Source: Tubulanus polymorphus (Eukaryota; Animalia; Nemertea). Taken from it: a stretch of 64,000 nt of DNA. A program made the position numbers and the translations under genes. The DNA lies in contig NC_134030.1 in the NCBI RefSeq assembly GCF_964204645.1, positions 13,182,957 to 13,246,956 on the forward strand. Reading direction: 5' to 3'. The stretch's first letter is position 1. Each line of letters begins with the position of its first letter. This document shows, piece by piece, positions 1,712-54,278 of the stretch. The notes under the pieces were generated by a model. That model did not search any database. It saw only the letters and a list, made by a program, of their open reading frames with translations, and had not been told where the DNA came from.

Positions 1712-2336
1712 GGTATTGTTGTCTGGCTATATACCTGAGGCCTGTTGTTCATTCGACTTAGATGTTTGACCTTGCATGTTGCTGTTTAAAATATCAGGGC
1801 ATATGCTGCTGTGGTGCTTACGCTTGCAAGTTTTGCAATTAAATCGTGACGTACATGTAGCAATTCTATGAGGGCCTAGACAGTTATAGCACAAATTGTT
1901 GGTTTGTTGGTTTGTATAAAGGCAATGCGTTGGTCACGCGTTACAAACTCCCTGCAATTCACTAATTAGTTAGTGGGCTTTCAGATCAGAGGGCGAGAGG
2001 GCGAGACACCACTCATCACCACAAGTAATTTTTTTCCCTAATAAATGGGGGATAGAAAAGCATTCTTAGCAACAATAAATAACAGAATAAAACCAGCAAA
2101 AAAACAATTTGAAATAAAAAAGTTAGTTGATGTTAAAAAAGAAATTGAACATAAAATATTGAAATTAGAAAAGATAAAAACTAAATATGGAGAGAAAGTA
2201 ATCTAAAACTAACAGTAATCTAACATTTCTATATGTAATATCTTTATTAAAATCTATTGTTGGAATATTATATTTAATTGATTTATTATATTGGAAAGCT
2301 TTTGGAAAACTATCTACCATTTATATAATTAAAAAA

Positions 2337-2771
2337 TTAATAATTTATTAATTCTTTTAATAATTTATCTTGTTCTTCAACTGTTATATGACCATTTATA
2401 CTTATTATATAATCTAGTGTATTCTTTAATTTATTAATTTCTTTTATATTAGTTTTAATTTTTCCTTTATTACTTTTTATATTTAATTTTGAACTTATAC
2501 CAGTTAAAACACTTGAACTTAATCCTAATACACCAATTGAAATAGCTAAAGGTGTTAATGGACTGAATATTGCTAGAAATGTTATTACAGAACTAATTGT
2601 AACCGAACCACTAATAATAAGATAATATATAATTTTACTTTTTAAATATTTTTTATTTTTTATCTTTAAGTCACTTTCAAATTCTAATATTTGTTTTGCT
2701 AAATATATTTTTAATTTAGTTTTATTTATATCATGAGGAATAATATCAATACTATCAACTTTATCTTCCAT
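2337..2771 (-). CDS. Polinton 144-aa two-TM membrane protein (intact copy of the disrupted gene at 16639-17073)
   Basis: Hydrophobic hairpin IIYYLIISGSVTISSVITFLAIFSPLTPLAISIGVLGLSS; TAAATG start; near-identical to 16639-17073. Confidence 0.8.
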   Translation of the reverse strand: MEDKVDSIDIIPHDINKTKLKIYLAKQILEFESDLKIKNKKYLKSKIIYYLIISGSVTISSVITFLAIFSPLTPLAISIGVLGLSSSVLTGISSKLNIKSNKGKIKTNIKEINKLKNTLDYIISINGHITVEEQDKLLKELINY

Positions 2772-2884
2772 TTATTTAGAAAAAAAATTACTAATTAGTA
2801 AATTTATATGCTACAAATATAACAATAACAGTTCCACCTAAAATCCATATTATTTCATATTTCTGTTGTTCTTTACTTGGGGTA

Positions 2885-4812
2885 TCATAGCCGGATAAAT
2901 TATGAAATAATATTGGTACGAAATTAACCTTTCTTAGCTTGTTAATTGCAATCTTCATGAGCAGCTCCACGATATTTTGAATTTAAATGATCATGATCTC
3001 TAACTTTTTTATCAAATGAATAAAAACGTTTTCACAATAACACAATGAGTTGCATAATTAAAATCAATTTCATCTTCTTTTGTCATAAATATTCTTTTAT
3101 TTTTGTTTAATAATTTTGCAAAATCACTTTCTAATTCAATCATTTTGTTACAAAAATCATTAACTACATCTTCACCTCTAAAAGAAATATATTGACTTTC
3201 ATATAATTCAGGATAATTTGATTTTATATAAATTCCATAAGCAGCAGCTCTTTGATGAACTTTTTTAATTGTATTTATAATTGGCGGATCTTGTGTTGTG
3301 TCTTCATTTAATTCATTTCCTTTATCCATTGATTTTAATAATTGCTTTTTGTTATATATTTCTTTTCTATCTTGATCAGTTAATTCTTTATTCAACGATT
3401 CAAAATCCCCATAAATTACAAATGAAACAATATTCTTAAATTTATGATTAGAAAATTTCAATTTATAATCTTTTTCTGTTGGCATTATTAATTTACAAAA
3501 ATCTTTATTATCCCATAATTCTTTATGTTTTAATAATGTATTCTCAGTCATAAATTTAGATAAACATTTTCTACATAGATAAATTTTATGATGATGATCA
3601 CTTTCTGTTCTAAAGAATAAGTCAATTTGTTTTAACCACATATAATGTTCATTTTCATCTTTTATGTAATATAACAAATCTATAGCATTTTCATCATCAT
3701 AATATTCTGTTAAATATAAAGCTTCCAATGTATAATCTTTAATATTTTCACCTTTTGTCTTTGGTAATTGCATTAATTCGAATACATTTATTTTTAAATT
3801 ATTAACTTTTTCTATTTTAGAAATCATTTTTATAGTTACTGGATATTGATCAATTTTATATAATGTTTCATATTTCCGATAATCTGTTATTCTACAAACA
3901 TTTTCCTGTGTTGGATGTAAGCAACTAATAATTGACCATAGAAAACATTTATTATCTTCATTTTGAATATTTATTACTGCTTTTGTTGTAAATGGTAATT
4001 TAATATAAGATGATGCTTTAATATCCTTTTCTGTTGTAAAGTTTGAATCATTTTTAAACATTTTATTACTTTTTTATGTTTTATTTATTTTTGTATTATA
4101 AACATTTAAATCTAAATATATAATTTCATTCAATGTTAAGCCAGAACCCTCAAAATATCTTTCTTCAATATGACGTTTAAATTCATTAAATATTTTTTCT
4201 AACTTCTCTTTTATTTGTATTTTTGAAATTATTTCTTCAGAGTGTGTTTGAATATTATAATTCATTTTTTCTTCTGACTTTATAAAACTTACTTTCCCAG
4301 AGATACTAATTTTTGGATATTCAACATCTGTTATCAAATCTAGTATTTGTTCTATTATTTCATTAAATGTACTATAATCTTCTATTGCTGTACCTTTAAA
4401 AAATCTAAATATAATAGCTGCAGGACCAATTTTACTATGTAATGTTTCTAAAATTTCAATTGTATCTTTTTTTTACTTTTTGAGGTTTATCATCAATATA
4501 ATCTTTTCCTAAAACATTATTACTCAAATTTTGATGGTGTTTTTGTGATTCAAGATGTCTATTATAATTTCTTTTTACTATAAATTCATTACAAACTTCA
4601 CATTTTATTTCATCCACATTCATATTTTCTAATCTTTCTTTTCTTTCATTGGAATTTTCTGGAGTTTCAAAATCTATTACATTTTTTATATGATTTGCAG
4701 TTTTTTCATATCGTGTTTTATGAGATGTATCGACGTATTTTTTACAATATGTGCAATAATATTGATTTTTATTAACATTATTGTTGTCTGGCTGGTGTTC
4801 ATTCTCCCCCAT
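2885..4812 (-). pseudogene. Protein-primed PolB N-terminal part (zinc fingers, exonuclease start), truncated
   Basis: ORFs 4456-4812, 4074-4337 and 3012-4061 are near-identical to 9312-11330; DNKCFLWSI, YGDFES and RDHDH motifs. Confidence 0.9.
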
Positions 4813-4956
4813 TTATTAGGGGAAAAAATTACTTGTGGTGATGAGTGGTGTCTCGCCCTCTCGCCCTCTGATCTGAAAGCCCACTTTTCCAATTACTTGT
4901 AATGATCGTTTGAGGTTTTTACGACAAAAGGTACACGTGAATGATTTAGGTCCAAA

Positions 4957-8296: not shown

Positions 8297-9235
8297 AAGT
8301 GACCACAGTCACCCCACATTACGGTAAATTATTTGTATCGAAGAAAACGGATTGATTTATTACAATAATTTGGTTAATCATTCTTCACATCACATTCCAC
8401 CATCCACATGCGTATAAATTTCAACAGATCCGACAGTACAGATTTTACATCTGAACAAAATTGTTATTCTTGAAAAACAGTAGACGATAATGCGGGTTCA
8501 TGTTCATAGTGGAGACTTCGCTCTCTAGTTGGCCTTTTAAAGCTGATATTTTTGCGTTCAGATTTTCGCAAAACACCTCATGTTTATTTCAACGAGGCCA
8601 CTTTCAAAATGCAGCTCCTTGGGAATTGGGCAATGGAAAAAGCTTTAATGAATGATTTATAAGAATATATGCTCAGTTGCAAAGTCAAAGAAACCCCAGT
8701 GAAGTTGGTTACTTGTACGTAGCTTATTCCTTATTCCGTTGCTTTTTCAAATATCTCCTCCAATAAGGAATATCGTGACTTTTCCCGATTTGGTTTTCCA
8801 CGTAACCGGTTCGACTTTTCTCGTTACATTATTATCAAAAGGGCGTATGAGGATCCGATGCAATCATCTCTGTACGGGGTTAAACACGGTCCGGGCACTT
8901 GAAGATCCGAGGAAATCATCCCTGTACACAGTCTGGGGCACGTCATAAATCTAGACAATCGACTGTGTGTGGGAAAAACGAACACTTCTGACTGTCAGCC
9001 ACAATGAAAAAGAATTGTATTACACATTTGCCTTTAGGGCTCGAGTCCGAGAAGCTCTAACAAGAGTAGCCTCGTTTATTTATGGCAACTAGAAGTTATG
9101 TTGCGATGTGTTGTTTATCCAAGTTTCTGTTAGGTCAACTTATATTTAAATCACTAAAGTATTTGAATCACGAAAAGTTGCGTCCGTGTCATTTTTTCCA
9201 TGTCTGATTCGAATCCGAATGAATATATGCGTCCC

Positions 9236-9316
9236 AGTAATAGGAAGATGTGGGTTTCGTACCAGAGGACAAGACACCACTCATCACCACAAGTAATTTT
9301 TTTCCTAATAAATGGG
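9236..9316 (+). repeat. Left TIR of the Polinton (contains the polB start codon at 9312)
   Basis: Reverse complement of 25237-25326, apart from an extra 8-bp GAGAGGAC unit on the right. Confidence 0.95.
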
Positions 9317-12300
9317 GGAGAATGAACACCAGCCAGAAAACAATAATGTTAATTAAAATCAATATTATTGCACATATTGTAAAAAATACGGTGATACATC
9401 TAATAAAACACGACATGAAAAAACTGCAAATCATATAAAAAAATGTAATAGATTTTGAAACTCCAGAAAATTCCAATGAAAGAAAAGAAAGATTAGAAAA
9501 TATGAATGTGGATGAAATAAAATGTGAAGTTTGTAATGAATTTATAGTAAAAAGGAATTATTATAGACATCTCGAATCACAAAAACACCATCAAAATTTG
9601 AGTAATAATGTTTTAGGAAAAGATTATTTTGATGATAAACTTCAAAAAGTAAAAAAAAACAACTTCAAAAACTAAATCCATTTCAAATAAACCTTACATG
9701 GAAAATGTTAGAAATTATATTGATTCACTAGAAATAAAAGATTCAATTGAAATTTTAGAAACATTACGTAGTAAAATTGGTCCTGCAGCTATTATATTTA
9801 GATTTTTTAAAGGTACAACAATAGAAGATTATAGTAAATTTAATGAAATAATAGAAAAAATATTAGATTTGATAACAGATGTTGAATATCCAAAAATTAA
9901 TATCTCTGGGAAAGTAAGTTTTTTAAAGTCAGAAGATAAAATGGATTATGATATTCAAACACTCTCTGAAGAAATAATTTCAAAAACACAAATAAAAGAG
10001 AAGTTAGAAAAAATATTTAATGAATTTAAACGTCATATTGAAGAAAGATATTTTGAGGGTTCTGGCTTAACATTGAATGAAATTATATTTTTAGATTTAA
10101 ATGTTTATAATACAAAAAGAAATAAGACATCAAAAAGTAATAAAATGTTTAAAAATGATTCAAACTTTACAACAGAAAAGGATATTAAAGCATCATCTTA
10201 TATTAAATTACCATTTACTACAAAAGCAGTAATAAATGTTCAAAATGAAGATAATAAATGTTTTCTATGGTCAATTATTAGTTGCTTACATCCAACACAG
10301 GAAAATGTTTGTAGAATAACAGATTATCGGAAATATGAAACATTATATAAAATTGATCAATATCCAGTAACTATATTTAAAAATGATTTCTGAAATAGAA
10401 AAAGTTAATAATTTAAAAATAAATGTATTCGAATTAATGCAATTACCAAAGACAAAAGGTGAAAATATTAAAGATTAAACATTGGAAGCTTTATATTTAA
10501 CAGAATATTATGATGATGAAAATGCTATAGATTTGTTATATTACAAAAAAGATGAAAATGAACAATATATGTGGTTAAAACAAATTGATTTATTCTTTAG
10601 AACAGAAAGTGATCATCATCATAAAATTTATCTATGTAGAAAATGTTTATCTAAATTTATGACTGAGAATACATTATTAAAACATAAAGAATTATGTGAT
10701 AATAAAGATTTTTGTAAATTAATAATGCCAACAGAAAGAGATTATAAATTGAAATTTACTAATCATAAATTTAAGAATATTGTTCCATTTGTAATTTATG
10801 GGGATTTTGAATCGTTGAATAAAGAATTAACTGATCAAGATAGAAAAGAAATATATAACAAAAAGCAATTATTAAAATCAATGGATAAAGTAAATGAATT
10901 AAATGAAGACACAACACAAGATCCGCCAATTATAAATACAATTAAAAAAGTTCATCAAAGAGCTGCTGCTTATGGAATTTATATAAAATCAAATTATCCT
11001 GAATTATATGAAAGTCAATATATTTCTTTTAGAGGTGAAGATGTAGTTAATGATTTTTGTAACAAAATGATTGAATTAGAAAGTGATTTTGCAAAATTAT
11101 TAAACAAAAATAAAAGAATATTTATGACAAAAGAAGATGAAATTGATTTTAATTATGCAACTCATTGTTGTTATTGTGAAAAACGTTTTTATTCATTTGA
11201 TAAAAAAGTTAGAGATCATGATCATTTAAATTCAAAATATCGTGGAGCTGCTCATGAAGATTGCAATTTACAAGCTAAGAAAGTTAATTTCGTCGCAATA
11301 TTATTTCATAATTTATCAGGCTATGATACCCATCTATTTATAAAACAATTATCAGGAAAATTGGGTTCAATTAATCAAGAAATAGAAGAATATAATGCTA
11401 TGAATGGTGTAAATGTAAGAAAATATGATTTTAAACTATTAGCTAAAACATCTGAAAATTATATTTCATTTCAATTTGGTTGCATTAGATTTTTAGATTC
11501 TTATAGATTTCTAGCAAGTTCATTAGATAATTTATTAAAAAGTTTAGTTGATAATGATTTTGTTATAACTCGATATTATTATCATTCATTATAGAATGGT
11601 AAAATTTTATCTAAAACAAGGAATGAAAATAAAGAAAGTACATAGATATATTGAATTTAATCAATCGAAGTGGTTAGAAAAATATATAGATTTCAATACT
11701 CAACAGAGAACCATATCAAAAACAGATTTTGAAAAAGATTTCTTCAAATTAATGAACAATAGTTTTTATGGAAAAACATGTGAAAATATTAGAAATAGAA
11801 ATGATATTGAATTAGTAAATAATTCTGAAAGATTAAGACATTTACAATCAAGCCCTAGACATTTAAGAAATAAAAGATTTGAAGATTATTTAACAGCAGT
11901 GAAATTAAAAAGAACGTCAATGAAATTTAATAAACCTATATTCATTGGTTCAACTGTTTTAGAAGTATCAAAATTATTAATGTATGATTTTTATTATAAT
12001 GTTTTACAACCACTTTTTGGGGAAAAGCATATTGAAATATTATATTTTGATTCTGTAACAGCTGATACCCCAATATTATTAAAATGTAATGATAAAATAT
12101 TGATAAGAAGAATTTCAGAAATAATTCCAAAACAAAATGAATGTTATATTTCATATGGTGAAAAAGAATTAATACAAATAAATGGTTTAATGGATGTTTG
12201 GACAAGAAATGGATGGAAAAAATTAAAGAATATTATTAGGCATAAAACAAATAAGAAAATCTATAGAGTTAGAACTAAATTAGGGTTTGTAGATGTTACA

Positions 12301-13408
12301 GAAGATCATAGTTTAATTAAACGGAATGGTAATGAAATAAAACCAACTGATATAAAAATTAGAGATGAATTATTACATAAAAGATTTTTCCAAAGAATGA
12401 ATCATATGTCATTTGATGAAATTATTAATTATATTTATAATATAGAGCCTGAAACATTAGAAGAAAAAGAATATTTTATCAAAGGATTTTTCATGGGTGA
12501 TGGTTCAGCAGGTGTGTATAATTATGTTTGGGGTAATAAATATTGTTGGTATTTATGCAATCAAGACTTAAAATTATTAGAAAGAATTAAGAAATTCTGT
12601 GAAGAAGTTTATTCACATAAAACATTTAGAATCATGGATGTTATGAAATCATCAGCAGTTTATAGAATACTTGTAAATAATCCTAAAGATTTTGCTATAA
12701 AATATAATGATGAATTCTATATTCACGCAATAGTGAAAAGTAATACTTCAACTAAAGAAAAGATTAGGTTTTAATATGAATATTGGATTGATTAAATCTA
12801 AACCAAATTGCTTTAATTTAAGCCATGTAGAAAATGAGTAAACAGAAGAAGTTAAGGATTTATTTGAAATATATAACCCATCAGATTATGTTTATGATTT
12901 ATCAACTGAAGATGGTACATTTAACTGTGGATTTCCATTAATAGCAGTCAATACGGATGCGTACATACTAAAAATCAAGACAAATGACATAACAAAAGAC
13001 TTAAAAACATTAAAACATCATTTTGATTTTAGCAATTATCCCAAAGATCATGAACTATTTAGCAATGATAATAAAAAGATTCCTGGTAAGTTTAAAGATG
13101 AATTAGGGGGTGATAAAATGATTGAATTTGTTGGGATAAGAAGTAAAATGTATAGTTACAGAACAAAAGATCATGAAGCTAAAAAGTTAAAAGGAATAAC
13201 AAAACATGTAGTTGATAAACATATAGAATTTCAAGATTATATAAAGTGTTTATATAACTCAATTGTAATGAAACATAAAATGAATTGTTTAAGATCAGAA
13301 GATCACGAGATGTACATTAATGAAGTTGAAAAAACTAGTTTAAATCCATTTGATGATAAAAGACATATTTCAGATGATGGTATAAAAACATTACCTTATG
13401 GTTATTAA
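9312..13408 (+). pseudogene. polB: Protein-primed family B DNA polymerase with N-terminal zinc fingers, an EndoVII-like Zn motif and an intein; stops, frameshifts and an internal deletion
   Basis: Exo I YGDFES; CCYC..RDHDH..YRGAAH..CN; Exo II FHNLSGYD; FLDSYRFL; motif B KLMNNSFYGK; motif C YFD/TD split by an intein; C-terminal PGKFKDE, RSKMYSY, KGI, DDKR. Motif A and Exo III are missing at a junction near 11580. Confidence 0.93.
12052..12952 (+). mobile_element. Intein with a partly deleted LAGLIDADG homing endonuclease, inserted in PolB motif C
   Basis: ILYFD|SVTADTPILL (block A); VDVTEDHSLI (block B, TxxH); FIKGFFMGDGS (LAGLIDADG block C); YVYDLSTEDGTFNCG (block F); LIAVN|TDAY (block G with +1 Thr). 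There is a frameshift near 12720-12735 and a TAA near 12839. Confidence 0.92.
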
Positions 13409-14078
13409 AATGGATCAATATCATCAAACTCGAAATCTCTATTGGTTTCTTCTTTTTCATTTAATTGTTCTTGTATAATTTGTTTAGGTTCTTCCATTTC
13501 ATTTTTCTCATTTAAATAACGTGTTATATTGTGCCACATTTCATCTTGCTCTCTTTGTTTCTTTTTGTTTGTTAATTCATCAAATGGAATTATAATATCT
13601 ATGTTTAAATAATTTAAAATCTTATTTAAAAAGAATTGATAATTAATTGAATCTGTTATTCTATTTTCCAAATGATACATTAATATTTGTTTGAATATTT
13701 TTTTTAATATTTTCCATATCTTCTTCTGTTAATTTAGGTTTTTCGTAATAATCGTTGAATAATAAATATAAATACATTTTCTTTTGTTTTGTGTTAAATG
13801 TTGATGGAATAATTGTTTTTATAATATCTTTTTTAGTTATTTCACCATTATTATTTTCTATTATTTTCATTTTTTCAAGCCATTGCTTATATTCTGGTGT
13901 ATGATCTTCTATTAAAAATATTTTAAAAATTTCATCTAGATAATTTAATTTTGGTTCTATGAGAAAATCTCTAGTTTTTTCTTCACCCCATAAATTCTTT
14001 TGCCATCCACATTCATTACAAAATAACACATTACCTTCTTGCCTTAAGGTCGCATAACTACATTGTGGACATTTTCAT
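13405..14078 (-). pseudogene. Poxvirus VLTF3/A2-like late transcription factor (zinc ribbon plus helical domain), with two 1-bp homopolymer frameshifts
   Basis: Reconstructed MKCPQC...LFCNECG...KLNYLDEIF...KLTEEDMENIKKIFKQILMY...SINYQFFLNKIL...QDEMW resembles vaccinia A2 as recalled (CSGC..CIFC..KLIHL..TINYSFFLDKIF..QLVW). Confidence 0.75.
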
Positions 14079-14730
14079 TTATAATTTATTGGTAATAGAT
14101 CTTTATTAAGCTCCTGGCATTTTCTTACGTTTTCTTTATGTTTTATTGTTCTATTATGTAGATTTGAATTACTTGTTGTAATAATCAATTTACAATATTT
14201 ACAATAATATGTTTTTCTTGTTAATTCATTATATTGTTTTTCTAACTTTTCAACTGTTTCTTTATTATCTGGTAACGTTTTCTCATATTTTACTTTTTCT
14301 AATAAACTATTTTTTCTTTCATTGAATTCATTTTCAAATTTATTAGAAATTTTATCTATATGTGCTTTACGAAATTGATGATTCTCCCAATCTTCTATAT
14401 TTTCAGGACTAAATTTCATTCGACAAGGTTCACAGAAATGATCTTTTGTATTATCCTTATCATAGAATAAGAAAGGTCTTATCCAAATAATATCAGGTTC
14501 AACTTCAACAGAATTACTATTACTTTCGTTACTATCAACATTAGCCGTTGCGCCATTAATTTTACACTTCTCTGAATGTTTTTAACATAATTTCTAGAGA
14601 ATAATTTATTACATTTTGGGCAGTTTATTTTAGGGGTTTTATAATTTTCATCATGTTTTTTCATATGTCGAGCCATATTACTTTTTCTTAGAAGTTCACC
14701 ACAAATTTCGCATGCTATCTTCTCGTCCAT
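14075..14730 (-). pseudogene. Multi-zinc-finger (C2H2/matrin-like) protein, frameshifted
   Basis: CEICGELLRKSNMARHMKKH, CPKCNK and CKYCKLIITTSNSNLHNRTIKH in adjacent ORFs 14479-14730 and 14075-14419. Confidence 0.7.
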
Positions 14731-14798
14731 TTATTAAGGAAAAATTTTATTACAATTAATTTTTAGTGATGAGCGGTAATTTTTTTATGTTATAAATA

Positions 14799-15587
14799 AT
14801 GGTAGAATTAAAAGAATACAGAATATTTGTTGATTCTAGAAAACTTACAAATTATAAATCACATAATTTACTAGTACAATTAGATAGAGAATTCAAGAAT
14901 TGTGTAGATTTAAAATTAGTTAATATAAGTTTATGTAATTCTTTTTATAATATAACGGATAAAACTGATGAACATAGAATCCTTTTTATTATTGATAAAA
15001 TTAGAAATAAACGGTTTCAACTTTATCTAACACCAGGATTATATAATTTAGAAACATTAGCGCAAGAAATTAATCGGAAAGCTCAGATTGTGTTAGGTAG
15101 TGATTCTAAATTTTCAATTAGATTTATAAAAAGTGATAGTTCTGATAAAATTAAAGTAAAGTTTGATGATGAAAATATTAGTCCTGATTCATTGATGTTA
15201 AGAAGACATGCTCACGCGGTAAAAAAACCTTTTGCTAAACTGTTAGGAATTCCTCCAGATAAACTTATTGTTGGAAACATATACGGTATATCAAATTTAA
15301 TACCTTTTACACATTTTAATATTTATTGTAATTTAATTGATCCTACAAAAACATTCGAAGCAACTAAAGATATAACTTGTAATTCTAGTATACTAAATAT
15401 TTTAGCATTGAAGAATGTTAAACAATTTGGAACGCAAATAAATCATAATTTAGCTGAATGTGATTTTAAACCTTGTATTCCTCAATTTAACAATTTTAAA
15501 TTAGAAATAAGAAATCATAATGGTTATTTAATTGATTTGAATAATTTTCCTGTGATATATGAATTAGTTACAAGATGTAGAGAGTAA
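14799..15587 (+). CDS. Minor capsid protein (penton, single jelly-roll)
   Basis: N-terminal IFVDSR...VQLDREF...LVNISLCNSFYNI, PGLYN, IYCNLID and C-terminal KLEIRNHNGYLIDLNNFP are typical of Polinton/PLV pentons. Confidence 0.75.
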   Translation: MVELKEYRIFVDSRKLTNYKSHNLLVQLDREFKNCVDLKLVNISLCNSFYNITDKTDEHRILFIIDKIRNKRFQLYLTPGLYNLETLAQEINRKAQIVLGSDSKFSIRFIKSDSSDKIKVKFDDENISPDSLMLRRHAHAVKKPFAKLLGIPPDKLIVGNIYGISNLIPFTHFNIYCNLIDPTKTFEATKDITCNSSILNILALKNVKQFGTQINHNLAECDFKPCIPQFNNFKLEIRNHNGYLIDLNNFPVIYELVTRCRE

Positions 15588-15603
15588 TTTTTTCATTATA
15601 TCA

Positions 15604-15831
15604 ATGAATATAACTGTTGGACCGAGTATATGTTTTGGGTTTGATTTTAAACGTGAGAAAGAAATGAAATTTAACATTAATGATGTAATTACAAAAATCA
15701 AAAATATTGCATTTTCTAATGAAACAACATTTAAGTATGAAAAAACAATAGATAAAGAAACTTTAAATGTAGAAAAGATTACTAATTTAATTAGAGAATC
15801 TTTAAGATTTTATGAATTTTATCATGGATGA
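15604..15831 (+). CDS. Polinton hypothetical protein (75 aa)
   Basis: Tightly packed ORF after the penton gene, preceded by a T-tract. Confidence 0.5.
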   Translation: MNITVGPSICFGFDFKREKEMKFNINDVITKIKNIAFSNETTFKYEKTIDKETLNVEKITNLIRESLRFYEFYHG

Positions 15832-15950
15832 TATTAAAAAAATAATAATTGAAATATATACAAATGAAACTAGTAATGAAATAAATGTTGAATTAATCAT
15901 AAATAAGTTAACTAAATATTTTGAAGATAGTAATTTTTTTTGATTAATAA

Positions 15951-16172
15951 ATGAGTGATAATAAGTGGATAATAACTGGATTATATAATGGCGCCTTACT
16001 ATCAGTTGGAACTGTTGGTTATTCAATGGTATTAAAAAAAGTATTTAAAATGGGAAGTGTTAATGTTGATAGATTTGATATAAATGATATCTTAAAATCA
16101 ACATTAGCAGTTACTTTATCCAATTTAACTATTGATTATTTGGAAAAACAAAAATATATTCCTCCCATATAA
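15951..16172 (+). CDS. Small hydrophobic Polinton protein (73 aa)
   Basis: TAAATG start; hydrophobic segment GLYNGALLSVGTVGYSMVL. Confidence 0.65.
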   Translation: MSDNKWIITGLYNGALLSVGTVGYSMVLKKVFKMGSVNVDRFDINDILKSTLAVTLSNLTIDYLEKQKYIPPI

Positions 16173-16196
16173 ATGCATAATTTTTTTGTTCAATAA

Positions 16197-16617
16197 ATGG
16201 CTTCTGCAATTATAACTATTATAGGATCAGCAATTGTTAACGCTTTAGCATTTACTGGTGGTGGTTATTTATTTAAACATATTGATAAAAATGGATCATT
16301 GACAGAACAAAAAAGACATAACTTAGCATTAGAAAAATATAATAAAGCAGCAGAAGAATAAAGAGAAAAGAAGCAAAACTATATGGATTATATTAACAAA
16401 GAATTATATGATCAGAAGATTTCACATAGAGATTTTCAATCAGTCGATGATGCAATGAGTTTATATAACGCGGTAACCAATAAAGAAAAATTACATCTAC
16501 ATAAACCTACAATATCAGATTATTATACCCCAAGTAAAGAACAACAGAAATATGAAATAATTTGGATTTTAGGTTGAACAGTTATTGTTATATTTGTAGC
16601 ATATAAGTTTACTAATT
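16197..16617 (+). pseudogene. Polinton protein with N- and C-terminal hydrophobic helices; internal stops
   Basis: MASAIITIIGSAIVNALAFTGGGYLF...EQKRHNLALEKY; TAA near 16360 and TGA near 16575. The mini-element copy has GGA at the latter site. Confidence 0.7.
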
Positions 16618-16638
16618 AGTAATTTTTTTTCTAAATAA

Positions 16639-17073
16639 ATGGAAGATAAAGTTGATGATATTGATATTATTCCTCATGATATCAGTAAAACTAAATTAAA
16701 AATATATTTAGAAAAACAAATATTATAATTTGAAAATGACTTAAAAGTTAAAAAGAAAAAATATTTAAAAAGTAAAATTATATATTATCTTATTATTAGT
16801 GGTTCGGTTACAAATAGTTGTGAAATAACATTTCTAGCAATATTCAGTCCATTAACACCTTTAGCTATATCAATTGGTGTGTTAGGATTATGTTCAAGTG
16901 TTTTAACTGGTATAAGTTCAAAATTAAATATAAAAAGTAATAAAGAAAAAATTAAAACTAATTTAAAAGAAATTGATAAATTAAAAAATACACTAGATTA
17001 TATAATAAGTTTAAATGGTCATATAACAGTTGAAGAACAAGATAAATTATTAAAAGAATTAGTTAATTATTAA
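16639..17073 (+). pseudogene. Two-TM membrane protein with a premature stop (GAA to TAA relative to 2337-2771)
   Basis: Direct comparison with the intact copy in the mini-element. Confidence 0.8.
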
Positions 17074-17089
17074 TTTTTTTATTATATAA

Positions 17090-18399
17090 ATGGGGTTTCC
17101 AAAAGCTTTCCAATATAATAAATCACATGAATATTATAAATATAATACTCCAGCAATAGATTTTAGTAACATGATAATATATAAAAATTTAGTTTTGCTT
17201 TCATTGATTAATTTAGAAATTTATGTTACTGAAACAAACTATTTTATTTCTAAAATGGAAAATATATTTAATACATATGAAGTTACTTTTACTAGAGATG
17301 AATATAATATATATAAAGTAAAATCTAATATGAAATATTGGCAGAATCAATTAAATTTTGCTGTTCCTTGTGCAACAGCTGGTTGTGGTGTAAGTTGGCA
17401 TGATCACTTGAATAACTTAGATAAAAATTTGAAATATTCTGATTTAAAATTCATTCATACAATATTTAGATTTCATGTATACTTTCAAATTAGAATTATA
17501 TTAAATGAATTAGAATGCCCTTTACCTGGATCAAAATATTTTAAAGAATTGGATAATAATATTAATCTATCTAAGTTTTATAAAATATGTAATGAATTTA
17601 ATATAAATATTAATTTCGATTTTAGAGCGCATGGTAGATTACATGGCGTTGGTGAAGAGTATGAAATAAAAAGAATTGATTATATGCATAGAATTTCAGC
17701 TTATCATAATTATAAAATTGATAATAATAATGGTTGGGTTTATTTTATTGAATCTTATAGTGAAGGATTTACAAAACCTGGTATACAAAGAATAAATCAA
17801 TCAATTAGAACTTATTTGATATGTATTTTAGGTGCGCAAGTTGAAACAAGATCACCAATAGTTGGAAATAATAGTACTTCATTCGATGCGCAGAAACAAT
17901 TCAAAGTATTATTTGAAGATTCCATTCATACTGATAAAAATAGATCGATTCCAGAAAACATTGTAAGATATCAAAATTATTTAGATAAATCTCATGTAAG
18001 ACTAAATTATTGTATAGGCCCTAATCTATTAATTATTTCTTATGATTTAGTATTAAAGATGGGAAACATAATTGGTTACAATAATCTAATCAACACTGCA
18101 ACATAAATAATTCAATTGGATTAAATGATATAAATAAAACGATTATTACTGCTCCAAAATTAACGGAAGGCGAAAAAAATAAAAAACATATCCAATCAAC
18201 AGAAACTAAAACAAAGAATATTAAATTAAATAATGATTCTAAAATAAAAGATTACAATACGTCAGAAAATATAAAAACTGATACTATTCAACATGTTATA
18301 ATTAAAACTGATAATGATAATAAATTCCATGAAAATACTAAATTAGCTTTAACTTGTATAGGAATTGTTATAGGAGGAATATTATATTTTAAATTTTAA
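17090..18399 (+). pseudogene. Polinton hypothetical protein with a probable C-terminal membrane anchor (ORF 17090-18106 plus a shifted tail)
   Basis: WQNQLNFAV.CATAGCGVSW.DHL and FRFHVYFQIR motifs; the downstream frame ends KLALTCIGIVIGGILYFKF*. Confidence 0.6.
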
Positions 18400-18415
18400 T
18401 TTTTGTATTATATAA

Positions 18416-19865
18416 ATGGATGTAGAAGGTGGAGAAGATATTGGAATGGATCCTTTTGATGAACCTGGTATAACTGATGAACAACAACCTGATTTAGTGA
18501 AACAAGTTTTAATGACGGTAATGAGCCAGAATATAATAATAATTTAAATATGCCTGATTATATTAAAAATGCAGAATCACAATTGAATCCTGAAAATTTA
18601 GACCCATATTTAGTAAAACAAGATTTAGATAATTTAAACAAAATACCTAAATTAGAGGATTTAATTGAAAAATCTAAACTTAACATAAATGATGAAGACG
18701 TTGGACCTTTAGCAGATCAATAAAAATTTTTAGATAATGGTAAATGTTATTATCGTTTGAAAGATGATTATTATATTGATATCACTTATAAAAAAAAATA
18801 ATAACAAAATCAATTTTGAGAAAATTAGATCCAGATAGAATTAAAAGAATTATTAATAGTAATGTAATAACTGATGTTATAAAACAAGAAAGAGATGATA
18901 ATATAGACGTATTTAAACAAAGAATTAATGAATTATTTGAAATAATCAAAAAGAAATCAGAAACAGAAACTTCTGAACATAATATAACTTCCAAAACTAG
19001 TAAACTTAAATCAAATAAAGTTCCAATTGAAAAACTTTTACCGAATGGATTAATTGATGTAACAGATCAACAATTAGAAGATTTAAATAATATATTTTCT
19101 GTTGAAGCAATTAGAGAAATTAAAAGTATAAGACTTGCATCTGATAAAATTGCACATGATAAAAGTATAGGAGATTTTAAAATTAGAACTTTAGAAAAAG
19201 AATTAACTGATAAAAATAAAGAAATAGAACAATTAAAGTCTGATTTAGATCATCAAGTAATTGATGAAATAGAATATAGGCAAAAAGAATTACGTTTAGA
19301 AAAAGAAATTAATAATTTAAAAGATAATTTAGAAGTACAGAAAGAAGAAATTAAATTATTATTAAAATCATATGATTATAATATTAATAGATTAAAAGTT
19401 ATTTTTAAAGATTTATTGATAAAACCAAATTCTGAAATATTATTAAAAGATAGAATAAAGTTATTATTTAAATTAGAAGGAATAACAATTCTTTCAATTC
19501 TAACAGCTGTAACTATGTTATTTACAACAATTGGTTTAGCAATATCAAAAGCTTTGAAATCTACTCCTACTCCCAATAAACCGGATAAACCCCCGAATGA
19601 TAATTATTCTATACAAGATAAAGTTAAAGATGGTTTAAAGAAATTAGCAAAATATTTATGGCGACTATCTAAAAAATCTGCTGCAGCTTTACCAGGAATT
19701 ATTGCATCAATTGTTGGTTTTATATTGAAATCTGCAGGTAATATTCTTAACTTTGCTGCTGAACATATTATTTTATTTTTAATTACAGTTGTAAGTGCTA
19801 TTATTTTTGGGTTAGTGAATATGATATCAAAAAGATATCAAGAAAAAATAATAAAAAATAAATAA
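18416..19865 (+). pseudogene. Coiled-coil protein with C-terminal TM/amphipathic helices; 5' part disrupted
   Basis: TAAATG start (MDVEGGEDIG); long coiled coil; GITILSILTAVTMLFTTIGLAI and AAALPGIIASIVGFIL...LFLITVVSAIIFGLV. Confidence 0.7.
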
Positions 19866-19885
19866 TTAATTTTTTTGTTAAATAA

Positions 19886-21133
19886 ATGAGTGGGAATTAT
19901 ATAAGTCCTTCTAAGATTTCTAGAATATCTAATGCTATTAAAGCAGAAAGATCACATCATATAATTACTCATAATCCTTCAAATATTAATCCCGATGAAA
20001 CTTTATATGTTAGAATTCCTAGATTAACACAAAATACTTTTTATGTTCCAAATAGTATTTATTTATCAACCGATATAAAAGTAACCGGTCATGATAATAA
20101 TTATGTTGTTGATAATGTTGGAAGATATTTGATTAAAAAATTAACTATTAAGATTGGTCCAGAAACAGTTTTCTCATTAGATGATTATAATTTATTTATG
20201 CATTATAAAGATTTATGGTTAACTAAAGAAAATAGAAATAATATGATATTTCAAGGCATTGAATCGGAAAACCATAATAAATTAAGATCAGGAGCTAATG
20301 ACGCAATAGTAACTCGTGCCGCAGATAATTTGATTAAAAATATTTATGGAAGCAAATATAAAATTCCATTAGACTTTGAATTGATAAATAATAATGCACC
20401 TTTATATAAATATGTAATTCAAGAAGATATTATATTTGAGATAACATTTGCTCCTGTAAATGAAATTGTATTATCTAGCGTTGTTAAAGATATGGGTTAT
20501 AAATTATCGAATATATGTTTAGAATATGACAGAGTAACTAATGAAAATATTGCTAACACAATTCAAACTCAATACAATCAAGGATTTTCATTATTATATG
20601 ATTATATTGATAAATCTAAAACTGTAACTATTAATGCAAATGATGAAAAAATTAATGAGAATATTAACTTCCCAAGAAGATCTATTAAAGGTATATTAAT
20701 ATTTTTTACCATTGCAACATATTCTAATGGTGCAATAAAGGTTGATAATTATTATAATCCTGAAATAACAAAAGTAGAAATAACTATCGAAGGAATAGCA
20801 AATAAAATATTTTGTCAAGGAATGAGAATGATTGATCAATGGCCAGAAATTAGAAAACATTTTATGAATGAAAAAGTAAAATCATTTGAAAATTGTAATA
20901 TTAATCAAATTGATTATTATACCGGCCATCAATATGCATTATGGTTAGATTTTAGAACAACAGAGGATAATTCATTACATGGTTCTAGAAAAAAACTACA
21001 GAACACTAAAGATGGAATACAATTATTCATGAAAAAGAAAAAAGGAAGCTTAAATTTTAAAATGCACATTTATATTATATCTGACGCACAATTAAATATT
21101 GTAAATCCACAATTAGATAGTATTCAATATTAG
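19886..21133 (+). CDS. Major capsid protein (double jelly-roll), open
   Basis: 415 aa; HNPSNINPDETLYVRIPRL, VVDNVGRYLIKKL, YKIPLDF, NINFPRRSIKGIL, YALWLDFRT..D..LHGS; size and position next to integrase and ATPase. Confidence 0.8.
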   Translation: MSGNYISPSKISRISNAIKAERSHHIITHNPSNINPDETLYVRIPRLTQNTFYVPNSIYLSTDIKVTGHDNNYVVDNVGRYLIKKLTIKIGPETVFSLDDYNLFMHYKDLWLTKENRNNMIFQGIESENHNKLRSGANDAIVTRAADNLIKNIYGSKYKIPLDFELINNNAPLYKYVIQEDIIFEITFAPVNEIVLSSVVKDMGYKLSNICLEYDRVTNENIANTIQTQYNQGFSLLYDYIDKSKTVTINANDEKINENINFPRRSIKGILIFFTIATYSNGAIKVDNYYNPEITKVEITIEGIANKIFCQGMRMIDQWPEIRKHFMNEKVKSFENCNINQIDYYTGHQYALWLDFRTTEDNSLHGSRKKLQNTKDGIQLFMKKKKGSLNFKMHIYIISDAQLNIVNPQLDSIQY

Positions 21134-21163
21134 AAATATAAAGTTAATAATAACGATATATAA

Positions 21164-22282
21164 ATGGGCGGTAAAAAAACTCCTAATACTAAAGAACAAT
21201 ATTTAAGAAATTTATATTACAACCCTGAGAGTTCGGTTACTTTTTCTTCTACCAAAAATATATGGCGTCAAGTAAAACAAGATAAATTAGATAAGATAAT
21301 CCCACAAAATTTAGTTAAATATAAAGATATAAACGAATTTATGTTAGAACAACCAACATATACAACACATAAAAAAATTGTTAGAAAATATAAAACTCGT
21401 AAAACTATGGTAAGTTATGTAGATCAACAGTGGCAAGGAGATTTAATTGATATGAAAAATGTTAAGAAACATAATGATGATTATTGGTGGTTATTGAATA
21501 TAATTGATATTTTTAGTCGTTATGTATGGAGCTTCCCACTTTATAGAAAAGATGCTGTACAAACATCAAATGTTTTAAGAAAATTTCTTTCGGATGATAA
21601 ACTAAAACCAGAAAAAATACAATTTGATGATGGAAAAGAGTTTGATAATTCACTTGTTTATGAACTCTTAGATAATCATAATATTAAACATTTTTCAACA
21701 AAATCGGATAAAAAAGCAGCAGTTGTTGAACGATTTAATAGAACAAGAATGTGGAAATATTTTACAGCAAATAATACTTTTAAATGGATTGATGTTTTAC
21801 CAAAATTGATAGAAGGATATAATAACTCTTATCATTCTTCTATTGGAATGAAAACTATTGATGCTAGAAAACCTGAAAATGCTGAAATTGTTTGGAATAA
21901 TTTATATGGAGCATTTCTTGTAGATGATTTTGGTGAACCTAAATTTAAAGTTGGTCAAAAGGTTAGAATTTCTAAGTATAAAAAGATATTTGATAAAGGA
22001 TACGATCGAAATTTTACTAGAGAAATATATAAAATAAAAAAGGTTATAACAACAAAACCATATGTCTATAAATTAGAAGATTTAGATAGTGAAGAAGTTG
22101 ATGGGTATTTTTACGAAGAAGAATTAAGTTTAACTACTGAAAATCTAGAACAAGAATATAAAATTGAAAAAGTATTAAAAACAAAAACTATTAAAAGAAA
22201 AAAATATTCTTTAGTAAAATGGGTTGGATGGCCAGATAAATTCAATGAATGGATATTGTCAAGTAAAATTAAAAATATATAA
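21164..22282 (+). CDS. Retroviral-like (rve) integrase with a C-terminal chromodomain
   Basis: DDE triad WQGDLIDM / QFDDGKEF / VVERFNRT; KFKVGQKVRI; chromodomain YKIEKVL...LVKWVGWPDKFNEWI. Confidence 0.95.
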   Translation: MGGKKTPNTKEQYLRNLYYNPESSVTFSSTKNIWRQVKQDKLDKIIPQNLVKYKDINEFMLEQPTYTTHKKIVRKYKTRKTMVSYVDQQWQGDLIDMKNVKKHNDDYWWLLNIIDIFSRYVWSFPLYRKDAVQTSNVLRKFLSDDKLKPEKIQFDDGKEFDNSLVYELLDNHNIKHFSTKSDKKAAVVERFNRTRMWKYFTANNTFKWIDVLPKLIEGYNNSYHSSIGMKTIDARKPENAEIVWNNLYGAFLVDDFGEPKFKVGQKVRISKYKKIFDKGYDRNFTREIYKIKKVITTKPYVYKLEDLDSEEVDGYFYEEELSLTTENLEQEYKIEKVLKTKTIKRKKYSLVKWVGWPDKFNEWILSSKIKNI

Positions 22283-22891
22283 ATGAATAAGGAATTATTT
22301 ATATTTTAACCTCATAATATGTTAATTTCTGGTGTAACAAATTGTGGAAAAACTTATTTTATATTAAATTTATTAGAAACTGTTTATAAAAACTACTTTG
22401 ATAATATAGTATTATTTTGTCCAACATATGAATTTAATCAAACTTATGATAGAAATATTACTAGAGATAATAAATTTATTATATTAGATCCTAAAACAGT
22501 AAAAGAAAATTTAGATAATTGTATTAAAATAGCAATAGATATTTATAAAGGATCAAATACATTATTCATTATAGATGATTGTGCAAATTTACATGATTCA
22601 AAAGTTAGAGAAAGTGAGTTATGTTATCTAGCTTTCTCTGGGAGACATTTCGCGATAACAACATGGGTTTTAAATCAAAAATATAATTCAATTGTTAAAG
22701 ACTTTAGAGAAAACATTAGATTTCTAGTTTTATTCTACAATAAAGATAGAAAATCGATGAAAAATGCACTTGAGGAAAATGATATTATTCTACATGATTT
22801 ACATAATGAATATATGGATAAGTTGAAAAATATTAAAAGATCAAAATTACTATTTAGATTACAACACCCATTTAAATATGAATTTATTTAA
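22283..22891 (+). pseudogene. A32/FtsK-like packaging ATPase (early TAA at 22307; ORF 22319-22891 open)
   Basis: Walker A GVTNCGKT, Walker B LFIIDD, SGRH arginine motif, conserved Q (LNQKY). Confidence 0.9.
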
Positions 22892-23166
22892 ATTCAACTA
22901 GCTTGTTAATCTAGTTGAATTCTAGTTGAATTCTAGTTATTGGTAGTTGGAACAAAAATCAACTAGATTTAACAATATTTTAACTAGCTTGTTAATCTAG
23001 TTTAATTCTAGTTACATTCTAGTTGAATTCTAGTTGTTAGTAGTTGGAACAAGAATCAACTAGATTTAACAAAGATAAACAAAAACAACAATATTTCAAC
23101 TAACTTGTTAATCTAGTTGAATTCTAATTACATTCTAGTTAAATTATAGTTGCAACATTACAACTA
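22892..23166. repeat. Intergenic array of palindromic AACTAG/CTAGTT repeats (about three higher-order units)
   Basis: CAACTAGCTTGTTAATCTAGTTG followed by 11-bp TTCTAGTTGAA subunits, repeated near 22895, 22982 and 23097. Confidence 0.85.
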
Positions 23167-23183
23167 ATTTTTTTGTTATATAA

Positions 23184-23877
23184 ATGGGAGGTGAAAAGAA
23201 AATAAAATCTAAAAATGGTGATGTTCCAATTGAAAAAACTTTAGATGATTTAGGAATAACAGAAAACAAATTAATTCCAGATGATGGTGCTTTAAATAAT
23301 GTTACAACAAATAATAATTATGAATATTATCTTTATTGTAAACATCAATTAGAAATATTAATAGCATCTGGAAAATGTAAAAATTTTATCGGTAAAAATT
23401 TAACTTATAATGAATTAGATACAATGAAATCAGATGAAATTATTAGATTATTTAAGATTTATGAAGCCGCGAGAACAGCTAGAATTAATGACGCGATATC
23501 AGGAAGTGTAGTAAAAGGTTATAGTAAATTATGTAATTATATGCTGCCAATTGAAGATGAAAATAGATTATAATCCGATTTAAAAAATGATTATTTAGTA
23601 ATTAGGAATTAAATCACAAGAATATAAAAAAGCTGTAAAAGAAAAAATAAGTAATAAAAATGGTGAAAATATTGTTATTTCTACTCCTTCTAATAATAGA
23701 ATATTTGATAAATGTCTATATTTTACAGTTGGATTTGTAATTGTATTCATTTTGATTGGGTGTAATTGGTATAAGAAATCAAATAAAATTCATGATATTT
23801 ATAATTCTGAAACAACTGCTATCAAAAATGAAAATACTTCTGAAATTCCAAAATTGATAATAAAAAAATGGATTAAT
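23184..23877 (+). pseudogene. Polinton hypothetical protein (129-aa ORF plus a disrupted tail with a TM segment)
   Basis: TAAATG start; a downstream frame contains CLYFTVGFVIVFILIGC. Confidence 0.55.
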
Positions 23878-23960
23878 ATTTTAGAAAAAAAGGAAAAAAA
23901 ATAATTGAATATCTCACTACTTTTGTCTGTCTATGCGGAGCAATTAAATTGTCCAGATAA

Positions 23961-24908
23961 GTCATTTCGGATTCTAGATATTCATTATTTTTATTAATTT
24001 ATCTTGTTTTTTTAATTTGAAGTTTTTACTTGAACATTGTATTACAGTCGTTTCTTATTATTAGTTTTTTTTAAATTGAAAGATGGCAGCACTGGGTGTG
24101 ATGCTAAAATGAATATTTGAATTTGAATTTGAATTTGTTAACCAATTAACATGGTAATTGATTACTAATTTGATTAAAAATTATATCATAATTAAGTTAA
24201 AAATCCATAATTCATTTATCAGTTTTCATTCCTATATTCTTTTCATTCGGAATAATTTATAATTTCAAATTTCACATATTTTTTTAGCACCAACAACATT
24301 CACTTAGGTGTTTTAGCTAAGTATTTAAGGCAATTCATTCGACCACTGGAGTGCCGCCGGGCTTGGCTTGCAGGGGCATTTCGAAAATGCACCTTTGTCC
24401 ACCCTCCGTGGTTCTCCTTCAGTTTCGACTTTCGATCCTCCTTTCGGGGGTAAGGGGTTGATAGGAAATGCATTAGGCGCCTTTAATATAATGTGTTTCC
24501 TGTCAACCATTGAAGGAGAATTGGTGAGGTGTAGGTCACAGGGGTGTAATTAGAAATGCTTGGGGATAGGTATCTCGTGGCGCCTCTCTATAACGGGATG
24601 CTTATCCCCTAAAAACTCTGTGAGTCAAGTCGGGTGGTTTTGCTAAAACTTACCGTAAAAACATTGAAATATTCCTTTTAATCACGAGAGAGAATGTATC
24701 CTCCTGTCTTGTGTGTGTTGTATGTACTGCGTGCTTATTATATTACTGCTATAACAACAACGTTGAATTGCAACACCTGTTTGATCGATCAATATTCAAA
24801 TCAAGCACTCTCTTATAATAACATGTAACAGATGTTTGACCGTATGATTGTAGTTGTTTGTAAAACGACTAAGGTCATTTTGGATTCTAGATATTCATTA
24901 TTTTTATT
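23961..24908. other. Cassette bounded by 35-bp direct repeats
   Basis: GTCATTTYGGATTCTAGATATTCATTATTTTTATT at 23961-23995 and 24874-24908 (one mismatch). Confidence 0.85.
24310..24650 (+). ncRNA. Putative structured RNA of unknown family with two GGCGCC-loop hairpins
   Basis: Nested stems read by eye: 24310-17/24642-49; 24336-43/24629-36; 24412-23/24509-20; 24456-75/24489-508; 24536-43/24616-23; 24562-78/24593-609. Non-Watson-Crick pairs are G-U on the plus strand. Confidence 0.6.
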
Positions 24909-24914
24909 TTTCAT

Positions 24915-25241
24915 TTAATCAACTATTTCTAAATCATGATGACCGTCTTCATTTTTCCCATGGTAGATTATTTTAAATCCTTCTAAATCTTTTAATTCCT
25001 CTGTACTCAATGAAACCCATTTTTCGGGTAAAAATACTTTAAATTCTCGCGATGTACTAACATTACAGTAGCTTAAATTCGCTGATACTTTCTCTCCATA
25101 TTTAGTTTTTATCTTTTCTAATTTCAATATTTTATGTTCAATTTCTTTTGTAACATCAACTAACTTTTTTAATTTCAAATTGTTTTTTGCTGGTTTAATT
25201 CTGTTATTTATTGTTGCTAAGAATGCTTTTCTATCTCCCAT
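24915..25241 (-). CDS. Polinton right-end protein (108 aa), possibly an OB-fold ssDNA-binding protein
   Basis: Start codon lies in the right TIR; beta-rich KTKYGEKV...FKVFLP...IIYHG pattern. The function is inference only. Confidence 0.6.
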   Translation of the reverse strand: MGDRKAFLATINNRIKPAKNNLKLKKLVDVTKEIEHKILKLEKIKTKYGEKVSANLSYCNVSTSREFKVFLPEKWVSLSTEELKDLEGFKIIYHGKNEDGHHDLEIVD

Positions 25242-25326
25242 TTATTAGGAAAAAAAATTACTTGTGGTGATGAGTGGTGTCTCGTCCTCTCGTCCTCTGG
25301 TACGAAACCCACATCTTCCTATTACT
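25237..25326 (-). repeat. Right TIR of the Polinton
   Basis: Ends ...CACATCTTCCTATTACT, followed by the TSD CGTCCC. Confidence 0.95.
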
Positions 25327-26575
25327 CGTCCCGTGACTTTTCGATACGGAGTATCCCCGGGGATACCATTTATAACTATGAAATTCTGCGTTGTCGGAAA
25401 TTCCGCGGGCAACACCGCCAGCAAAGCACATTTTCTGAGAATAAATGATTTAGTGAAACATGTGCCTAGTATCAAAAGACAACAAACATTTTGCACAATT
25501 CGTTCTTTATCTAACCAGAGGCCTTTAACTTAAAAAAACAAATTTCACCATAGGTAGTTTGCGTGTTATTCACCCTTTGCATGATATGAATCGCAAAACT
25601 GAGTACACATATCATATACAATTTGCCATCCGGTAAAACTATACTTCGGCCACCAGAAGACTGTTTAGTGACAGAATCAAACGATGATGGCTTACCTGCA
25701 AACACGGTTTGTATCGTCAAAATGCATAACAAAACAATCAACGGTTTTCCCATCTGCAATTAGAAAAGTATTTGTTCCATATTAACATATGACTAGTATA
25801 CCTTCGGGTTAAGCGAGTCCATAGGCCAAATTTAAAGCAGCTACAGCGTCCATCAATATACGGAAACATTTTTATTTGCCCGACTACAACATATTCTTAG
25901 CCCAAAAAACGGCGTAACAAAGATTTGTTCATATTGAGATCTAATTTTTATTTGGTATCATTGAAACTTATAGAATATGGCGGCGTAGACACACGCACAT
26001 TTCCAAAGCTCAGCTTAAAAGTTTATTTAAGGTGGTTCGGTGAAGGTTTTTTGTGGACTTTTCCGTCATATCGCGGCTTTGGTATGGTAGACGTGCACTA
26101 TGGTTGGTGGAAACGGTAAAAAGAAACGTAATAAGTATCGATCTGATGTAAATGCTGTAAAACGTCGTGATCAGAATAAGACACCTAACAAGAATCTGGT
26201 ATGTACTAGTGACATAGATGACCGTTCATCCGAAATGAATGATCACAGTGATAATTCTAGTATGGACAGCGGAAATGACGGCACTGCGAGTCTCGGGGAT
26301 ATTGTTACTATGTTGGGCGGCATGAGAAAGAAATTAAATCGGCTGGAACCAATCGAATAGGCAATTAATTGAAAATCAGTGTAAAAGATATCACAAACTG
26401 TCGACGCATAACCTAATTACGAATGAAAAAATCGGTACATTCACCGGCGAAGTTGGCTGTTTACGCCAGGTAAACATGAAGTTAAGCAACACCGTGCTTG
26501 ACTTTCAATCGCGTTCTATAAGGGATCATCTCTTCTTTTTCGGCGTGCAAGAAGAAAAAGATGAAATCGTGGCAG

Positions 26576-53751: not shown

Positions 53752-54275
53752 TTATGATATTTCAGGATTATAATAATTATCAACTTTTATTGCACCATTA
53801 GAATATATTGTGGTAAACAATATTATTATACCTTCAATAGATCTCCTTGGAAAGTTAATATTTTCATTAATTATTTCATCACTTGCATTGATAGTTACAG
53901 TTTTAGATTTATCTATATAATCATATAATAATGTAAATCCTTGATTATATCGAGTTTGAATTGTGCTAGCAATATTTTCATTAGTTACTGTATCATATTC
54001 TAAACATATATTTGATAATTTATAACCCATATCCTTATGAACTCTGGGTATATTACAATTCATTTACAGGTGCAAAAGTTATTTCAAATATAATATTTTC
54101 TTGAATTGCACATTTATATAAAGGTGCATTATTACTTATTAATTCAAAATGTAGTGGAATTTTATAATTACTTCCATAAATCTCTTTTATCAAATTATCC
54201 GCGTCATTAGTTGCTATTGCATTATTAGCTTTTGGTCCTATTCATTTTCTGTGTGAATTCCTTGAAATATCATAT
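53752..54275 (-). pseudogene. Isolated, diverged fragment of the Polinton major capsid gene
   Basis: KDMGYKLSNICLEYD...NINFPRRSI...YYNPEI matches about 20240-20770. Confidence 0.9.
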
Positions 54276-54278
54276 TTT

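Follow-up and report, generated by a model that had tools for sequence, protein, structure and literature searches.

What interrupts the DNA polymerase gene of the Polinton at this locus, and how did it get there? The 64,000-nucleotide stretch of contig NC_134030.1 analysed here (the window) carries an integrated Polinton of 16,091 bp whose protein-primed DNA polymerase B (pPolB) gene is split by an insert of 901 nt (12052-12952), which separates YFD from TD in catalytic motif C. That the insert is a true intein we regard as practically certain. Judging from sequence comparisons, it is likely a broken copy of a motif-C intein that Polinton pPolBs acquired long ago from large DNA viruses and their pool of pol-c inteins. 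The full account, in which an old viral origin, homing among Polintons and an animal host are taken together, we consider probable.

The insert begins with a Ser codon directly behind GAT (Asp, 12049-12051) and ends with Asn (12950-12952), followed at 12953 by Thr, the first of the residues TDAY. Its 5' part, open over 237 codons, holds the TEDH motif and one LAGLIDADG helix, while its 3' part lies in a different frame, contains one stop and ends in YVYDL...PLIAVN. A preliminary description of the locus had proposed an intein with exactly these borders, at the pol-c site and equipped with a homing endonuclease, and profile searches bear this out: the 5' piece scores 33 bits on the hidden Markov model TIGR01445 (intein_Nterm, cut-off 24.5), and relatives pass PF14528. 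The 5' piece itself falls below the cut-off on PF14890 (25.4 vs 35.8 bits) and on PF14528 (14.5 vs 22.5 bits), and the 37-residue 3' piece by itself gives no Pfam match. When compared with P0001, a pPolB with an open-frame intein, the N-terminal Hint region is 70% identical over 108 columns and the endonuclease half 63% over 101 columns; the C-terminal Hint piece is 70-73% identical to P0001 and P0151 over 37 columns. Insertion into motif C at YxD/TDS, together with kinship to other pol-c inteins, identifies the pol-c allele. All class-1 residues are kept in the window pieces, namely Ser1, the block-B Thr and His, the block-F Asp, the terminal Asn and Thr+1. By these residues the insert is classified as a class-1 intein with a LAGLIDADG endonuclease that is broken here. 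The penultimate residue is Val in the window copy and Ser, Lys or His in its relatives. A penultimate His is usual in class-1 inteins and not universal. The Val was correctly read in the preliminary description. His is present in 46 of 122 extracted family inteins (Lys 61, Ser 6, Val 4, other 5; the set includes about three doubtful extractions); a non-His residue at this position is normal for the family.

The window copy is dead, as had been proposed. At 12763/12764 it lacks 55 residues that are present in both P0001 and P0151, the second LAGLIDADG helix among them, and is left with one helix and out of frame. Loss of that helix, a frameshift and a stop had all been recorded earlier, and all are seen; the first two had been counted separately but are a single lesion at one junction. 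At the stop codon, 163 of 165 reads over position 12840 carry another letter, and contigs from run X2 show loose ends and diverging letters on both sides of the deletion junction, so that deletion and stop are likely private to the window copy or rare. Outside the intein, 271 P0001 residues have no counterpart at about 11583-11587, and the window copy therefore cannot work, spliced or not. PF03175 matches P0001, and the broken polymerase pieces of the window alone stay below that match. The last 155 residues of the N-extein are 78% identical to the intein-free P0216, and the N-extein region has a weak Endonuclease_7 match.

Intact versions of the intein were found in other polymerases. A search among longer proteins gave 205 matches in 942 candidates, and the best 120 of these 205 comprise 4 pPolBs, 107 RNA-primed PolBs (rPolBs) and 9 type II topoisomerases. 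The top three are pPolBs with an open intein, in frame with the exteins and at the same site: P0001 (63% identical), P0002 (48%) and P0003 (49%). Insertion site and intein ends are alike in these three and in the P0134 family. Shorter matches with 65-86% identity include P0127, P0128, P0144 and P0151 as well as a multicopy family on long contigs, and a profile search of 1.84 billion representatives returned P0252 and intein-free pPolBs among the 150 matches listed. Scans of viral contigs gave one weak match (28%), and none for P0001. Ser1, the block-B Thr and His, both endonuclease Asp residues, the block-F Asp and the terminal Asn are present in all six aligned full-length pPolB inteins. PF14528 is above cut-off in P0001 (30.1 bits), P0002, P0003 and P0134, and PF14890 in P0002 only, with the window, P0001, P0003 and P0134 below it. 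Between the three pPolB lineages the endonuclease region is 44-48% identical and the Hint regions 43-63%. Because the endonuclease is conserved over splits at 45% identity, though lost in many family members of 190-280 residues, it appears to have been used. The predicted structure of the P0001 intein (pLDDT 93.4, the score predicted for the local distance difference test) finds its best PDB matches in TliVMA, PI-PkoII and PI-PfuI (E 6e-18 to 2e-14) and its best viral matches in the PolBs of a phycodnavirus, Pandoravirus, Marseillevirus and Megavirus.

The P0134 cluster (55 members) and the P0136 cluster (14) make up another multicopy pPolB family that bears the intein, with many fragmented members and contigs of up to 825 kb; these clusters represent a second host genome with endogenous carriers. 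The intein family also extends to type II topoisomerases (P0057, P0069, P0071, P0079, P0088, P0090, P0094, P0110 and P0117), where the insertion site D-x-D/...N/TDG mimics that of the polymerase.

Empty sites were sought at the level of both proteins and reads. Intein-free alleles are seen in P0216 and P0332-P0334, and P0334, the nearest extein to that of the window (87%), is among them. About 12% of DNA run X6, labelled as the same species, was sampled (1,934 million letters), and 6,452 reads were placed on 11300-13700. Of the 65 junction reads, 25 lack precisely the 901 nt between the intein borders. In 29 others a skip of 906 nt is paired with 5 different letters, and in 11 a skip of 910 nt with 9 different letters, so that each of these also loses 901 nt on balance. 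Mean depth was 244 in six bins of the 5' intein versus 401 and 396 in five bins per flank, which puts the intein at about 60% of flank depth. Filled and precisely empty sites coexist in reads labelled as one species, and the empty share among related copies ranges roughly from one fifth (junction reads) to two fifths (depth). A marine metagenome run (X5) yielded no more than 11 short pieces and was left out. In the P0002-like family, D-C-D-S replaces D-T-D-S at the homing site in 14 of 25 intein-free members, and full-length carriers have Thr+1; the variant may represent an escape from the endonuclease. The intact relatives, the empty alleles in the same species and the second crossing into an unrelated pPolB lineage described below go beyond the preliminary description.

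The intein tree comprised 50 rows chosen from about 250 extracted sequences, was rooted on three pol-b-site inteins and was built without archaeal pol-c inteins. The 8 pPolB inteins form one clade (100/99) inside the rPolB pol-c inteins (96/94), in agreement with the previously claimed kinship to rPolB inteins of large DNA viruses. Its sister group (86/89) consists of Pol-delta-like PolBs, which we infer to be of the nucleocytoplasmic large DNA virus (NCLDV) type, and T4-like phage PolBs. A quick 75-row tree agrees. The polymerase tree comprised 45 rows with 7 intein carriers; P0151 and P0252, as misaligned fragments, and the long-branched P0341 were left out. Six state changes are needed on it, at least four of them forced, carrier monophyly is rejected, and carriers are no more clustered than in shuffles (137 of 500 as low). 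Among related pPolBs, intein and extein identities run in parallel (63/63/59% to P0001 and 44/48/48% to P0002). For P0003, inteins are 46-49% identical and exteins 25% identical or unalignable; PF03175 gives 111 bits for P0003 and no match for P0216, an intact relative of the window. The PF03175 scores suggest that the P0003 and window lineages correspond to the Alpha and Beta classes of PMC8502044. GC content and GC at third codon positions (GC3, 0.135) are the same in intein and exteins. Three things mark the crossing as old: the identities track, GC3 is alike, and the closest inteins outside Polintons reach no more than 41-43% identity. The acquisition came with repeated loss or homing and was not a recent jump. 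The simplest reading of the sequences has the intein enter once, long ago, out of the large-virus pool, persist for long with repeated loss and re-invasion, and jump at least once from one pPolB lineage to another.

Several observations weigh against our account. No contig or read in the window's species spans a whole intact intein, and the presence of an intact copy in that species is presumed. Support for the sister group is just 86/89, and the root depends on three paralogous inteins. Matching intein and extein divergence in the window's lineage would also be expected from plain inheritance with losses. The intein is present in one of the 120 closest long pPolBs and absent from 119, a count in which the intein-free query favours empties, and homing is therefore not efficient. 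No recognisable host gene was found among 68 flanking open reading frames (ORFs) scanned.

Two of these points feed an unlikely alternative, in which the intein entered a pPolB ancestor once, still splices and has lost homing, and was then inherited and at times lost, for instance by recombination with empty copies. The matching identities and the dominance of empties fit such a history, as does the order shared by the intein and polymerase trees, with the window and the P0001 group joined first and then the P0002 family. However, a splicing-only intein can drop its endonuclease domain, whereas here both endonuclease Asp residues and 44-48% identity are kept over deep splits, and P0003 requires a lateral move between pPolB lineages.

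The nature of the host depends on the setting of the element (Table 1). A pPolB, an rve integrase and a packaging ATPase are all present, and the inverted termini and 6-bp duplication are those given for Polinton/Maverick elements in PMC8097293. For a double jelly-roll capsid protein there is one weak Capsid_N match, and no cysteine protease was found in 12 stretches scanned, which covered small ORFs partly. The flanks hold BEL/Pao remnants (DUF1759 at 124.9 bits, DUF1758, RVT) along with long interspersed element (LINE) and Ty3/gypsy pieces. Since BEL/Pao is treated as a metazoan subclass (PMC3118150), the host is likely an animal, a conclusion we hold with high confidence. An ordinary Polinton-like virus with an intein in a protist or other non-animal eukaryote is quite unlikely: the lack of a host gene in the window and the short contigs (4-17 kb) of the closest intact pPolBs would allow it, but the element sits among these retroelements, and the only named source of pPolB relatives is the sponge Sycon ciliatum (44%).

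Table 1. Coordinates of the interrupted polymerase, its intein and the surrounding Polinton in the window
Feature	Position	Strand	Details
Integrated Polinton, AGT...ACT termini	9236..25326		16,091 bp; basis: inverted repeats and genes
Inverted repeats	9236-9303 / 25251-25326		95-97% complementary
6-bp target-site duplication	9230..9235 (left), 25327-25332 (right)	+ (left)	copies identical
N-extein of pPolB	9312..12051	+	several pieces (frameshifts, stops); ends in YFD; basis: tblastn of P0001
Intein, N-terminal Hint region	12052..12378	+	Ser1; block B TEDH 12298-12309
Linker and first half of LAGLIDADG endonuclease	12379..12763	+	motif 1 FIKGFFMGDGS 12475-12507
Deletion junction	12763..12764	+	55 residues including LAGLIDADG motif 2 gone; frame shifts here
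Endonuclease end, stop, C-terminal Hint region	12764..12952	+	stop 12839-12841; block F YVYDL 12887-12901; terminal Val-Asn
C-extein of pPolB	12953..13408	+	starts with Thr+1; 79% to P0216, 85% to P0151, 59% to P0001
Major capsid protein, likely	19886..21133	+	PF16903 Capsid_N weak, E 0.0095, below cut-off
rve integrase with chromodomain	21164..22282	+	PF00665 above cut-off at 41.3 bits; PF00385 below cut-off at 19.7 bits
A32-like packaging ATPase	22310..22891	+	PF04665 49.1 bits, above cut-off

The window holds further Polinton material. A second, internally deleted fragment (1972-4885, minus strand) is nested in a BEL/Pao element and is 97% identical to 9732-11331; it stops short of motif C, which rules out an intein in it. 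At a distance of 33 kb, the opposite strand bears an isolated capsid-gene piece (53617-54279, 86% identical to 20237-20912). Within the element, the ORF at 17090-18106 (338 residues) has no Pfam match; judged by ESM Atlas features, of which 178 are shared, it is a MACPF candidate (0.95; recognition score low), and it may match the membrane-active accessory genes described for adintoviruses.

As to the donor, a source in T4-like phages, or a transfer from Polintons to large viruses that would leave giant viruses out as the source, seems to us very doubtful. The T4-like PolB inteins P0008, P0012, P0015 and P0208 do lie in the sister clade and have the G-x-PLI-x-x-N end in common, and the best matches of P0015 are Synechococcus and Pelagibacter phage polymerases (about 30%). 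The phages, however, make up a small part of a clade whose other members are Pol-delta-like PolBs, and the branches around it are occupied by eukaryotic-virus-type rPolB inteins. Polintons and phages are not known to occupy one cell. The strict form of the preliminary description, a single recent jump from a giant virus directly into this Polinton family, is largely refuted and keeps next to no credence. Its appeal comes from the prevalence of rPolBs among the best 120 long homologues and from a poxvirus-like start motif (below) that suggests contact with a large cytoplasmic virus. Against it, the best non-Polinton inteins, T4-like phage and NCLDV-like PolBs among them, are just 41-43% identical versus 63-88% for Polinton inteins, intein identities and GC3 follow those of the exteins, and the pPolB intein clade branches deeply and stands on a long stem of its own. 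The remaining candidates are ruled out: an assembly chimera or chance by junctions that recur in independent proteins and reads, a Hedgehog or Hint-only domain by the endonuclease and the in-frame exteins, and a spliceosomal intron by a skipped stretch without GT-AG ends and by skips in DNA reads.

Homing endonucleases cut the empty site, and the endonuclease sequence is copied in by repair. In our account of old viral origin and homing, empty sites would be cleaved by the LAGLIDADG domain and the break mended on the template of a filled copy, with conversion of the empty allele; homing, offset by loss and target escape, would keep filled and empty alleles together in one Polinton family of one host species (homing-endonuclease biology, PMC11296320). 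An intact precursor would splice by the class-1 route through Ser1, the block-B Thr and His, the block-F Asp, the terminal Asn and Thr+1, which would restore the catalytic D-T-D of the polymerase (chemistry in PMC7765530). The scattered presence on the polymerase tree and the coexisting alleles point to homing indirectly, splicing and cutting are predicted from sequence, and the donor, the direction of transfer and a route by co-infection are presumed.

A stronger form of this account is possible and is offered tentatively: an intein gene drive at work in an animal germline, with a large-virus-derived intein that converts empty polymerase genes among chromosomal and free Polinton copies and has jumped between unrelated polymerase lineages, and with Polintons in the role of hyperparasites, which share the start-codon motif of a poxvirus-like helper and replicate together with it. 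The motif TAAT-(T run)-3 to 9 nt-TAAATG, a pattern chosen after seeing the sequence, ends on an ATG 9 times in the element versus a shuffle mean of 0.10 (maximum 2, n=300), at 9312, 15951, 16197, 16639, 17090, 18416, 19886 and 23184 (+) and 25241 (-), and 4 further times in the second Polinton fragment. In poxviruses TAAATG serves as the late start element (PMC4542343), and Polinton-like viruses occur with entomopoxviruses (PMC11296320). The motif suggests a route of contact with a large cytoplasmic virus and a helper-virus lifestyle. Because no poxvirus intein is among the named matches, helper and donor need not be one virus.

These observations describe a route by which inteins enter likely animal chromosomal DNA and persist there in many copies. 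They also concern the crossing of an intein allele between rPolB and pPolB, which share little beyond D-T-D; a direct homing step between such polymerases was thought implausible (PMC549080). With filled and empty alleles present in one species, homing, loss and target escape can be measured in a single genome. An intein common to Polintons and large DNA viruses is also a genetic sign that the two have met, which bears on the helper-virus dependence of animal Polintons.

The class-1 pol-c intein family is known, and what is new is the class of host protein and the genomic setting. No Hint-plus-LAGLIDADG intein in a Polinton pPolB was found in the literature searched; an earlier description may exist in subscription papers, Repbase, InBase or bioRxiv supplements, which lay outside the search. 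Jeong 2023, Starrett 2021 (with one supplement), Barreat 2021, Barth 2024 and 10.64898/2026.10.13.758929 never use the word 'intein' in their main texts (0 occurrences). Archaea and NCLDVs are both known to carry pol-c inteins (PMC549080). Those of NCLDV PolBs (Mimivirus R322, PMC549080; HaV, phycodna-, pandora-, marseille- and megavirus) occupy the same point, YxD/TDS in motif C, and resemble the Polinton inteins in length (about 350 residues), in running from Ser1 to Asn with Thr+1 and in having a LAGLIDADG endonuclease; their nearest metagenomic members are 41-43% identical, and they rank as top fold matches. In contrast, the host here is a pPolB with exteins unalignable with rPolBs, the carrier is an integrating 16-kb element with many chromosomal copies, and the inteins group in a clade apart. 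HNH and VSR endonuclease inserts in Polinton pPolBs (Jeong et al., 10.1101/2023.08.22.554363), which PMC11161782 speculates to stem from intein invasions, likewise place a nuclease domain within this polymerase; they are described, in the accessible text, without a Hint domain, whereas the window intein has a full splicing domain, LAGLIDADG, an active-site position and precise empty alleles. The archaeal PolB and VMA inteins (PI-PkoII, PI-PfuI, TliVMA) have the two-domain Hint and LAGLIDADG fold in common with the P0001 model (TM-score 0.54-0.67) but differ in host and are 14-18% identical. In the accessible part of PMC5784728, the inteins of eukaryotes are those of algal plastids, of NCLDVs and of nuclear genes in fungi and protists, and no animal is listed. 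The fungal and protist nuclear inteins (Prp8, VMA1) are, like the present one, encoded in eukaryotic nuclear DNA; however, they sit in essential single-copy host genes, whereas the window intein resides in a multicopy endogenous viral gene.

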